Source: Muribaculaceae bacterium
GTDB taxonomy: Bacteria; Bacteroidota; Bacteroidia; Bacteroidales; Muribaculaceae
Assembly: GCA_023664185.1 (NCBI GenBank)
Contig: JAMPGA010000001.1
Span: forward strand, 839,473 to 903,472
DNA length: 64,000 bases
Direction: 5' to 3'
Made by a program: the position numbers and the translations under genes
Shown here: piece by piece, positions 57,219 to 59,113 of the stretch
Layout of the letters: the number at the start of each line of letters is the position of its first letter
Numbering within the stretch: the first letter of the stretch is position 1
The notes under the pieces: generated by a model
The model's database searches: none
What the model saw: the letters and a program-made list of their open reading frames with translations, nothing else
What the model was told of the DNA's origin: nothing

Positions 57219-58538
57219 TCAATTATTCCATATTCCTGTGGCGGTGCCCCTTATGAGAGCCATGCATTGGCGTCCGCTCCATATAAGCCTAAGCAGGCTT
57301 ATGGCAGAGAGTGTCACGGGAATGCCTGCCACTCCGATGTGGCCACACAGGTAGATGGCCAAAGGAATGAACAGGACGGTTTGGATGATTTCGGCGCAGA
57401 ACTGCACTTTGAGTTTTCCGGTGCCGTTGATGAAGTTGACAAAGATATTGCCCGGAATCAGGAGCACCACATATAGTGCACACCATAGAGTCAGAGCCAA
57501 GGGGATATTCACCTCGCTCTTCAGCCAGATGCGGTAGACTGGGGCTGAGAGGAGCGTCATGGCCACCGCTATGGCGCAGAGCAAGCCCCACATGCCCAGC
57601 AGACGGCGCAGGGTGGAGTTCATCCAGGACAGGTCATTTTTTGTATACGCCTCTGTCACAGCCGACCATACAGGGGTCAACACAATGTTTGATACCAGCA
57701 GAAGCACTGAAAAATACTTGTAGGCAAGATTGTAGGGGGTCACCTCGGCCGGACCCAGGAGGTGGGAAATGATGATGTTTGACGATAAAAATATCACCAC
57801 CGTGGTGATCTGTATAACAAAAAATCGTGCGCTCAGCGACGCCAGCTGTCCGAAAAGCCTCAGACGTATGTACTTGATCGACGGCCGCAGAAACCTGTAT
57901 CGGCTGAACACCACGGGATACATGGCCACATATACCAGCGCCGGTACTGCCGTGAAGATAAGAGCCACCAGCTGCAGCGACGATGCCGTGGTGCGGGTGA
58001 TGATCCATATCAGCACCAGCGAGATGAGGCTGCCGATAAAGTAGATGATGTCGTTCATGGCCGGCTGCTGAAGGGCAGTGTAGACTGTGCCAACCAGTCG
58101 CACTATAAAGGTGAGACACGTGAATCCCACCACGATGAGCATGGTCGAACCCAGCGAGCTGACTCTGGCGGGCTCTACATTGAGCATGCTATACCAATCT
58201 ATCCACCGACTGGCGGCCAGATATAGCAGAAAGAAAGTCCCGATTATCACGGCGAGCACAAAAAATGTGGTGCTCACGTAGATACGCCCGCTCTCGGTGT
58301 CCTCGTGGGCCATGGCCTCGGCAAGCTTGTTGCGCAGGCCGTTGCCCAGCCCTATGTCGAGCAGGAAAATCCAGCTCACTGTGGTGCTTATGGTTAGCCA
58401 CACACCATACTCGTAGTCGTTGAGATAGTCAAGGGTTATGGGAACCACGATGAAGGAAATCAGCGCGGCGCCCCCTCTGAACACAGAGGAAGCCAGGATG
58501 TTTTTAACTACGTTGCGGCTGCGGGTGTTGGTGATCAA
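57219..58538 (-). CDS. wzx: Polysaccharide flippase (MOP/MATE superfamily)
   Basis: YG.WLTIS, DIGLGNGLRNKLAEA, about 12 TM segments; TTG is the only in-frame start near the predicted N-terminus. Confidence 0.88.
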   Translation of the reverse strand: MITNTRSRNVVKNILASSVFRGGAALISFIVVPITLDYLNDYEYGVWLTISTTVSWIFLLDIGLGNGLRNKLAEAMAHEDTESGRIYVSTTFFVLAVIIGTFFLLYLAASRWIDWYSMLNVEPARVSSLGSTMLIVVGFTCLTFIVRLVGTVYTALQQPAMNDIIYFIGSLISLVLIWIITRTTASSLQLVALIFTAVPALVYVAMYPVVFSRYRFLRPSIKYIRLRLFGQLASLSARFFVIQITTVVIFLSSNIIISHLLGPAEVTPYNLAYKYFSVLLLVSNIVLTPVWSAVTEAYTKNDLSWMNSTLRRLLGMWGLLCAIAVAMTLLSAPVYRIWLKSEVNIPLALTLWCALYVVLLIPGNIFVNFINGTGKLKVQFCAEIIQTVLFIPLAIYLCGHIGVAGIPVTLSAISLLRLIWSGRQCMALIRGTATGIWNN

Positions 58539-58544
58539 GGTTGA

Positions 58545-58844
58545 GAGTGTGTCTAATAAAGGGTGTTAACGCGTAGGGTTCATGTTATGAGATGTGTTTA
58601 TCGATGCAGTTTCGGGAGTGTACTGGATGTACACGACTGAAACAAAGCGATAAAGACATCCATAGCATGAAGTCAAATCATTCTTTCTTTTCGCGTTATT
58701 TCGCCTCATAAGACTTTTATAAATTCTGAAATGTTGTTTTAACGAGTGTGAATTAACGAAAGTTACCTCGGCTCGGCCACTCTTTGCCGCTTTTTGTCTA
58801 AAGATTGGCCCCCTACACGTTAACATCCTTTATTAGACACACTC
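58545..58844. mobile_element. 300-bp MITE-like element with 34-bp terminal IRs and TGA target duplication
   Basis: GAGTGTGTCTAATAAAGGGTGTTAACGCGTAGGG (58545-58578) versus reverse complement of 58811-58844 matches 32/34; TGA at 58542-58544 and at 58845-58847. Confidence 0.75.
58566..58826 (-). CDS. 86-aa ORF spanning the element from IR to IR (translation unproven)
   Basis: ATG lies in the right IR, TAA in the left IR, same frame as wzx; no recognisable family. Confidence 0.3.
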   Translation of the reverse strand: MLTCRGPIFRQKAAKSGRAEVTFVNSHSLKQHFRIYKSLMRRNNAKRKNDLTSCYGCLYRFVSVVYIQYTPETASINTSHNMNPTR

Positions 58845-59081
58845 TGAGTCAAGACAAAATCTTCCATTCCGGCCTCCTGTAAAAGAAGCCGACAAAGCAG
58901 GGATGGCTCGGAGTTTTTTCTGCGACCCGACGAGAGATCGCTGCGAGGCTCGCCACGGCTTCCTGACCCAGGCAGTCGGTAGGCGCATCCCGGTGTCTGT
59001 CTCCTTTGTTGCGGCTCTGTGGCCGGGACAGTGAACAGACTCACTTCCCTGTATGGCGATCAGCCGGAGCTAATCCGGGCG

Positions 59082-59113
59082 CAAATTTACAGAATATTTG
59101 TGGTATATCCAAA
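59082..59113 (-). promoter_or_regulatory. Consensus Bacteroidetes sigma-A promoter driving the glycan locus
   Basis: TTTG (59113-59110) - N20 - TAAATTTG (59089-59082) on the minus strand. Confidence 0.75.

Follow-up and report, generated by a model that had tools for sequence, protein, structure and literature searches.

A miniature inverted-repeat element in the 5' leader of a wzx-type flippase gene of a Muribaculaceae bacterium, and the most likely accidental reading frame that spans it

The closest described counterparts of the element considered here are the Correia elements (CREE/NEMIS) of Neisseria and the ERIC/IRU repeats of enterobacteria, which are small, non-coding sequences with terminal repeats that are present in many copies, often near gene starts. 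These elements are co-transcribed, and their long hairpins alter the processing or stability of the mRNA, or the supply of promoters, in a manner that depends on their orientation. The palindromic elements of Rickettsia, like other MITEs (miniature inverted-repeat transposable elements) that remain open in frame, can be read through by ribosomes; they are inserted within coding sequences, so that the protein of the host gene includes their translation. In Bacteroidetes, translation initiation occurs mostly without Shine-Dalgarno pairing, and a Bacteroides promoter is defined by a TTTG at -33 and a TAnnTTTG at -7. The present work concerns a stretch of 64,000 nucleotides (referred to as the window) from a Muribaculaceae bacterium (assembly GCA_023664185.1, contig JAMPGA010000001.1, positions 839,473 to 903,472), in which a 300-bp element (58545..58844, minus strand) is present immediately upstream of wzx, the first gene of a glycan operon. 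This element is itself a MITE. MITEs are known to be abundant in Bacteroidota from a general census of such elements (PMC11602168), and no description of the present family was found in the literature. The element is spanned by an open reading frame (ORF) of 86 codons, and an earlier, sequence-only reading of the window had proposed that through this ORF the insertion rebuilds a translational coupling that it had destroyed, or that it acts as a switch depending on its orientation, while also allowing that the arrangement could be a coincidence. The results described below indicate that the last of these is most likely the case.

The identification of 58545..58844 as a non-autonomous transposable element follows from its terminal repeats, the target duplications on its two sides, the existence of empty orthologous sites, its small size and its occurrence in dispersed copies. 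The sense strand of the element, on which the fold of its superfamily is conserved (see below), is the minus strand of the window and has the same direction as wzx; all features given here are on this strand unless indicated otherwise. In this direction, the 5' terminal inverted repeat, GAGTGTGTCTAATAAAGGATGTTAACGTGTAGGG, is located at 58811..58844 and includes an ATG (58826-58824), and the 3' terminal inverted repeat is located at 58545..58578 and includes a TAA (58568-58566). The repeats are 34-35 nt long and, when compared over 35 nt (58544-58578 vs 58811-58845), they are 94% complementary; the motif AAATGTTAAC of the 5' repeat is also present in the terminal repeats of the superfamily. The element is flanked by the trinucleotide TCA, of which the upstream copy is at 58845..58847 and the downstream copy at 58542..58544, the latter being followed by ACC and then by the start codon TTG58538. 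The insertion point is a TCA in the 5' leader of wzx, 6 nt before the TTG start and within a conserved upstream open reading frame (uORF).

A BLAST search with the element against its own genome (2.12 Mb, 15 contigs, 54% G+C) identified 11 copies of 72-360 bp on five contigs (C7, C8, C9, C10 and C14), viz. four copies of 296-303 bp (inclusive of the window copy), three copies of 360 bp containing an extra 57-bp module, one of 282 bp, two of 190 bp and one pair of ends of 72 bp. The termini GAGTGTGTCTAATAAAGG(A/G)TGTTAAC are common to all 11 copies, their interiors are about 90% identical, and indels of 2, 5, 20 and 57 nt are found among the copies other than that in the window. The 72-bp remnant (C8:134717-134788) consists of two terminal repeats head to head, with the interior deleted. 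In the 190-bp derivatives (C8:218469-218658 and C7:972276-972465) a 53-codon frame is open from end to end on both strands, and one of them (c10; individual copies are referred to by such numbers where required) has a native TTTG...TACATTTG promoter 15 nt upstream and, 2 nt downstream, the ATG of a gene for a 739-aa protein. No match was obtained in a Pfam scan of the 86-codon ORF, and none at E <=1 when the window region was searched against Rfam. In a search for a transposase with matching ends, no pair of family ends 0.6-4 kb apart was found to enclose a transposase (the single pair at this spacing, in L085, encloses ffh), and the genome gave no match in a profile search that covered DDE_Tnp_1 and DDE_Tnp_4 but neither further transposase families nor ISfinder. 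The exact pattern of the terminal repeats gave no matches in the species genomes of GTDB or in metagenome contigs, and the pattern of the leader junction likewise gave none in metagenome contigs. One full-length member of the superfamily showed no similarity to plasmids or phages.

The gene wzx (57219..58538) encodes a flippase of 439 aa with a TTG start and a match to Pfam PF01943 (Polysacc_synt), and it is followed in the operon by wzy, GT2 and GT4. TTG58538 is the earliest possible start codon of this ORF, and in an alignment it matches the ATG start of an orthologue that is 76% identical (P0002). The two nearest flippases show 76% and 74% identity, and both are present in fully syntenic loci (L041 and L042) with the order thymidine kinase, DUF3108, metallophosphoesterase, wzx, wzy, GT2 and GT4. 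The element is absent from both of these loci, and due to this the flanking TCA is interpreted as a target duplication. As it is now read, the leader uORF (58820..58867, from ATG58867 to the TAA at 58822-58820) encodes MEDFVLTQSVSNKGC*, in which codons 1-8 are ancestral and the remainder is repeat sequence. When 58545-58844 and one TCA are deleted, the reconstructed empty site reads ATGGAAGATTTTGTCTTGACTCAACCTTGATC, i.e. MEDFVLTQP*, with its stop overlapping the start of wzx as TTGA. The start of the uORF, ATGGAAGATTTT, is conserved in four loci (the window, L041, L042 and L033/G024). In L041 the uORF, MEDFVITQPHD*, overlaps the ATG of wzx as ATGATTGA; in L042 its stop comes after codon 5 and is 13 nt upstream of the gene start; and in G024 it is fused in frame with the gene. 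Judged from these loci, the element is an insertion that split a putative ancestral short leader uORF. A role of the uORF in coupling to wzx is possible rather than established, and because the uORF stops early in L042 and is fused in G024, the conserved ATGGAAGATTTT may instead be a motif at the nucleotide level, at the margin of the conserved leader, and not serve in coupling.

The 86-codon ORF (58566..58826) starts at ATG58826 and ends at the TAA in the left repeat, which is in frame with TTG58538 and 27 nt upstream of it. The TAA of the uORF overlaps ATG58826 as ATGTTAA within the right inverted repeat, and on the opposite strand a frame starting with GTG (58563..58640, plus strand) closes after 25 codons. 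All of these features, as well as the leader ORF, are located where the sequence-only reading had placed them; the reconstructed empty site was likewise reproduced and is backed by the two element-free orthologous loci, and these loci also support the view that a short leader ORF was split by the insertion of the element. The meaning given to the 86-codon ORF is not supported by the other copies. The frame would have been expected to remain open from repeat to repeat in homologous copies, with dN/dS below 1. In the sister copies c2-c7, which are all six of the sisters of 296-360 bp, the frame from the repeat ATG closes after 9 codons (MLTCRAANL*). The window copy alone lacks one C, at 58810..58811 (GGG-GGCC vs GGGCGGCC in the sisters), and this private 1-nt deletion joins the repeat ATG to a stop-poor core frame. 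This core frame is seen in the consensus of the subfamily, where it runs for 84 codons without a stop from the TAA of GTTAAC in one repeat to that in the other and has no start codon near its beginning. Frameshifting indels are present in c4, c5 and c8, in-frame stops are found within the 57-bp module, and the homologous frame of a relative from the same genus (G004) contains 8 stops. The pN/pS ratio relative to the consensus is 0.67 for the ORF frame and thus comparable to that of the two stop-filled frames (0.69 and 0.88), and substitutions creating a stop were gained 3 times in the ORF frame vs 5 and 5 times in the others. As a coding gene, the 86-codon ORF therefore fails the tests of frame conservation and of purifying selection.

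The frequency with which such an ORF is expected by chance was estimated by a neutral simulation that started from the family consensus and applied 11 random substitutions and 0-2 single-base indels, and an ORF spanning the element from start to stop was seen in 3.8-7.5% of the copies. All three frames that enter the repeat reach a stop within about 12 nt of the repeat ATG, and because of this the overlap of stop and start is built into the repeat and does not constitute an additional coincidence. The repeat ATG (ATGTTAAC) is present family-wide, and ORFs of 9 to 113 codons start from it. In three branches of the superfamily these ORFs are 91-113 codons long (106-113 in some), but there the adjacent gene start is located at the other end of the element and on the other strand, and as the ORFs run away from the adjacent gene they cannot relay ribosomes to it. 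Of the copies that precede a start codon in the own genome, c3 (5 nt away) and c6 (11 nt away) have 9-codon ORFs from the repeat ATG and no relay ORF, in c8 (21 nt away) the ORF has 64 codons and ends about 100 nt upstream of the gene start, and in c10 the 53-codon ORF extends from repeat to repeat and ends 14 nt before the ATG. Because the frame is closed in the sisters, the deletion is private and there is no coding constraint, the 86-codon ORF is most likely a coincidence, i.e. an accident of one missing base and not a conserved device for the passage of ribosomes. It should not be annotated, or pursued, as a gene or a switch. The account in which the insertion repairs its own damage is reduced to one private indel in a repeat family.

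The expression of wzx can be considered in light of the sequences upstream of the element. A Bacteroidetes-type operon promoter, TTTG-N20-TAAATTTG, which was read from the sequence and is conserved in orthologous loci, is present at 59082..59113 and begins 2 nt past the stop codon of the metallophosphoesterase gene (59120-59118). It is followed by a 5' leader of about 215 nt (58868..59081), whose conservation is seen in the alignment with orthologous loci and which contains the invariant blocks GAAGTGAGTCTGTTCAC, GGAGACAGACA, GGGATGCGC, CCTGGGTCAGG and CGAGCCATCC as well as GGAATGGAAGATTTT. The promoter and leader together are found at 58868-59113 (minus strand) in the window, L041:2764-3000, L042:2794-3000 and L033:1403-1590 (minus strand), so that at least four Muribaculaceae genomes have them ahead of the flippase gene that opens a glycan locus; in G024, which belongs to the same genus, the leader precedes a different and unrelated flippase. 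The leader had no match in Rfam, and when it was compared by BLAST with 300 genomes of the family almost no matches were seen outside its own genome. Its role may be cis-regulatory, which makes it a candidate cis-regulatory RNA for surface-glycan loci; alternatively, it may mark the conserved border of a glycan locus that recombines. A scan of the region for sigma-70 promoters and terminators gave nothing meaningful for a Bacteroidetes genome. Within the element, a scan for exact TAnnTTTG found no box on either strand in any copy of the own-genome subfamily. Given the conservation of the operon promoter and the lack of a promoter box in the element, the leader transcript is expected to extend across the element. 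As c10 is located downstream of the native promoter of its gene, read-through probably does occur in this MITE family.

Based on these observations, the explanation that we consider probable is that of a MITE insertion with a by-product ORF, in which transcription from the conserved promoter (59113-59082) would read through the leader and the element, and translation would begin at TTG58538 itself, where the end of the repeat provides an A/T-rich context. The traffic of ribosomes across the element would then be incidental, and the ORF would be the by-product of three things, viz. the family-wide repeat ATG, the 84-codon stop-free frame of the consensus and the private 1-nt deletion. The copy differs from the consensus at 11 positions (about 4%) in addition to the deletion, and as the operon genes are intact despite this divergence, the insertion is apparently tolerated at wzx in its present orientation. 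Several observations weigh against this explanation. For the full transcript, a stem of 35 bp ending 6 nt before the TTG is predicted (-129.5 kcal/mol, z = -9.4), and unassisted initiation beside such a stem could be poor; the stem could also depress initiation or invite processing of the RNase III type. The predicted stem is, at the same time, the sole physical argument that ribosomes should assist in its opening. Further, the chance estimate for the window copy, at only about 6%, is not large, and the deletion falls exactly where a compensating mutation would be required. The 190-bp copy c10, for which read-through is also needed, has its own repeat-to-repeat ORF of 53 codons near the gene ATG, and the 84-codon stop-free run of the consensus is mildly unusual by itself (p ~0.03 by shuffling).

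Apart from the reading frame, three by-products of this work are worth modest interest, viz. the conserved flippase leader described above, a structured superfamily to which the element belongs, and the oriented insertion of its members close to gene starts. The superfamily is recognized by a 26-nt core, TCAGTCGTGTACATNNAGTACACTCC, that is common to diverged relatives from the same genus and is present in >118 contigs of the species-representative genomes of Bacteroidales; its hosts include Muribaculaceae, Muribaculum, Duncaniella, Paramuribaculum, Barnesiella and other Bacteroidales. In the window copy the superfamily signature, TCAGTCGTGTACATCCAGTACACTCC, is at 58615..58640 and holds the invariant hairpin GTGTAC-ATCCA-GTACAC (58634-58618; helix 7). 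The statistics on ends and duplications are based on 66 elements with clean ends from GTDB species genomes (L043-L160). The ends in the superfamily are of the type GAG(C/T/G)TTGTTTAATAA.... These 66 elements are mainly 345-360 bp long, and a 3-bp TNA duplication (TTA, TAA or TCA) matches on both sides in 51 of them, with TTA and TAA being equally common overall. Gut Bacteroidales, inclusive of Muribaculaceae, carry an uncatalogued MITE superfamily that has TNA targets and, as described next, a covarying fold.

The fold was examined in an alignment of 26 dereplicated members, from which the outer 26 nt of each terminal repeat were trimmed off. The consensus fold contains 54 pairs, and compensatory double changes are seen in 35 of these. 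Paired cells make up 95.9% of the total, as compared to 76.2% with shuffled partners (none of 500 shuffles reached the observed value) and 35-46% when the partners were slid by 1-3 columns, and the covariation score is 0.547 vs 0.190 for shuffled and <=0.10 for slid partners. In the helices, which were predicted on the sense strand and whose cells are not independent events, G-U cells exceed A-C cells by 100 to 14, and due to this the strand that folds is taken to be the one in the direction of wzx. The fold comprises a long stem, with an internal loop (GAUGAGGGAG/GACCGAAGAG) and a hairpin that covaries in sequence (UGUGGC/GCCACA, UUAUGG/CCAUAA and CAUAGC/GCUAUG), and a 3' domain around the invariant GUGUAC-loop-GUACAC hairpin. 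Helices P2 and P3, which correspond to the 57-bp module, have been lost from the window copy, in which the 3' domain is retained. The pattern of covariation argues that the conservation of the interior stems from nucleic-acid secondary structure and not from coding, and conserved sequence under the ORF, e.g. FVSVVYIQYTPET, which is the translation of the GTGTAC...GTACAC hairpin, is accounted for by this structure. A hammerhead-like reading of GAUGAGGGAG...GACCGAAGAG was considered and rejected, as the core nucleotides do not fit and Rfam gave no match; the elements of five full-length members, when searched against Rfam, likewise gave no match at E <=1. In the same scans the sole match above the gathering score of its family was an sRNA (small RNA) of the FopS family (RF04319, 61.6 bits) at L065:6488-6555, on a contig of an uncultured Muribaculum, which is unrelated to the element, and L158 gave matches to miRNA (microRNA) models that were below threshold.

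The placement of the elements with respect to genes is also not random. In the own genome, the same (3', sense) end lies 2-21 nt before a co-oriented start codon in 5 of 10 copies, the adjacent genes being wzx and those for an outer membrane beta-barrel protein with a signal peptide, a SpoU methylase, a beta-helix lipoprotein and the 739-aa protein; a sixth copy has the same orientation and is 172 nt upstream of a gene. In other species, 43% of the copies have a start codon no more than 30 nt from one of their ends, vs 22% for random intergenic TTA/TAA sites (p = 6e-4), so that positions 2-30 nt ahead of real start codons are occupied about twice as often as at random, and the adjacent start is at the 5' end and on the opposite strand in 21 cases vs 2 (p = 7e-5). 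The bias in the own genome is the reverse of that in other species (0 vs 5, Fisher p = 2e-4), although this comparison is based on small numbers. Targeting of the stop codon of an upstream gene was considered as a cause of the proximity to start codons and was rejected, since such insertions account for only 13 of 61 elements. As TTA and TAA duplications are equally common overall, we infer that the orientation bias results from selection on the consequences of insertion rather than from the mechanism of insertion. Should this bias come from effects on gene expression, the elements would provide gut commensals with a widespread source of regulatory variation, surface-glycan loci included.

Elsewhere in the superfamily, 35 of the 66 elements contain a TAnnTTTG box on the sense strand, as compared to 5 with the box on the antisense strand. 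In one branch, consisting of the uncultured Muribaculum MGBC113403 and its relatives (L043, L051, L065, L074, L096, L116, L132, L137, L144 and L159), a full sense promoter, TTTGTTTCATATCGTTGACATATTTTTACATTTG, of the TTTG-N22-TACATTTG type, is located in the middle of the element (approximately element positions 139-172), and it would transcribe the 3' structured domain outward. A broader proposal, which we put forward only tentatively, is that the superfamily goes beyond selfish DNA and carries a structured sense-strand RNA of about 300 nt, made in many branches from an internal promoter, with the orientation of the elements relative to the adjacent start codon under selection, and that the promoter-less and partly deleted subfamily of the present genome has been reversed to become a transcribed 5' leader for wzx and no fewer than four other genes; if so, polarity could be avoided in some copies, such as the window copy and c10, by ribosomes that translate across the element.

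The same observations bear upon a second possibility, that the element is a portable promoter or 5' leader, which supplies the gene at its 3' end with an outward promoter or a favourable region for initiation, and that wzx is driven from within it, the native promoter being dispensable. The repeated placement of one end before co-oriented start codons in the own genome, the internal promoter boxes of the other branches, and the position of c6 and c8 after terminator-like hairpins, where an upstream -7 box is lacking, are all in accordance with this view. However, no copy of the own-genome subfamily has an exact -7 box on either strand, the start codons in other species are at the opposite end (21:2), so that a sense promoter points away from them, and c10 has a native promoter immediately upstream. 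We therefore regard a portable promoter as unlikely.

A functional, compensatory relay, which corresponds to what the sequence-only reading had proposed, appears less probable still. According to this scenario, the translation of wzx required coupling to the uORF, the insertion broke this coupling and the 1-nt deletion was then selected, such that ribosomes which finish the uORF restart at ATGTTAA and, by translating the 86-codon ORF, open the repeat stem and prevent Rho-dependent polarity before they terminate 27 nt upstream of the TTG. Its strengths are the conservation of the uORF start in four loci, in three of which the uORF reaches the gene start, overlaps it or is fused to it, the private and correctly placed deletion, the predicted stem abutting the start codon of wzx, the comparable arrangement in c10 and a chance of only about 6% for a single copy. 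Opposed to these are c3 and c6, which are placed before real start codons and have no relay ORF, the absence of coding constraint on the frame, and the loss of the uORF arrangement in L042 and G024, where ATGGAAGATTTT may be a nucleotide motif; moreover, a lone indel is not statistically testable and it could be an assembly error. This last alternative, viz. that the C is absent (GGGGG in place of GGGCGG) through an error in the assembly consensus and that the true copy closes after 9 codons, would account for a single-base difference in a G-rich run that is unique among the copies, but indels that look real (2, 5, 20 and 57 nt) are common in the family and there is no direct sign of an error, and we hold it to be quite improbable. 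Inversion of the segment between the repeats as an on/off switch of the glycan operon, for which the 35-nt inverted repeats directly upstream of gene 1 of the locus would be suited as recombination sites, can be dismissed almost entirely, given the 3-bp target duplications, the 11 dispersed copies with interiors about 90% identical that adjoin unrelated genes, the empty orthologous sites and the lack of a TAnnTTTG box inside on either strand. The suggestion that orientation matters is upheld to the extent that orientation is non-random (5 of 10 copies in the own genome and 21:2 elsewhere), which is in line with one orientation being tolerated and the other not, whereas no sign of flipping in place was seen and the element is a transposon with target duplications and not an invertible segment.

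The reading of the element as a MITE insertion crossed by read-through transcription can be placed alongside the described systems. The inverted repeats just upstream of a glycan operon recall the invertible promoters of Bacteroides capsule loci (invertons of the Mpi/fin type), but the present element differs from these in having target duplications, dispersed homologous copies and empty sites, and in lacking a promoter box. The overlap of the uORF stop with the start of wzx in the reconstructed site and in L041 resembles termination-reinitiation coupling (ATGA/TTGA); however, this arrangement is lost in L042 and G024, and the uORF itself is putative. With the Rickettsia palindromic elements the present family shares the feature of a mobile repeat that ribosomes could read, and ORFs of 106-113 codons from the repeat ATG are present in some superfamily branches; in most copies, however, the frame is interrupted and coding constraint is absent. 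The 3-bp TNA/TWA duplication in conjunction with terminal inverted repeats is similar to that of the IS5 family (IS1031/ISL2-type) and of PIF/Harbinger elements, and we take the element to be a MITE of an IS5/Harbinger-like, TNA-duplicating transposon, a tentative assignment judged by its duplication; in contrast to these groups, no transposase with matching ends was found for it, and its genome gave no match to DDE_Tnp_1 or DDE_Tnp_4. The closest likeness is to the Correia and ERIC elements, as the present element has terminal repeats, is multicopy, is found near gene starts and is able to form hairpins, and is probably also co-transcribed and sensitive to orientation. However, it differs from them in its 3-bp TNA duplication (rather than TA), its length of about 300-360 bp in comparison to 100-155 bp, its occurrence in a different phylum, and its interior, which, as recognized here from sequence, forms a multi-helix covarying structure that extends beyond a terminal hairpin.

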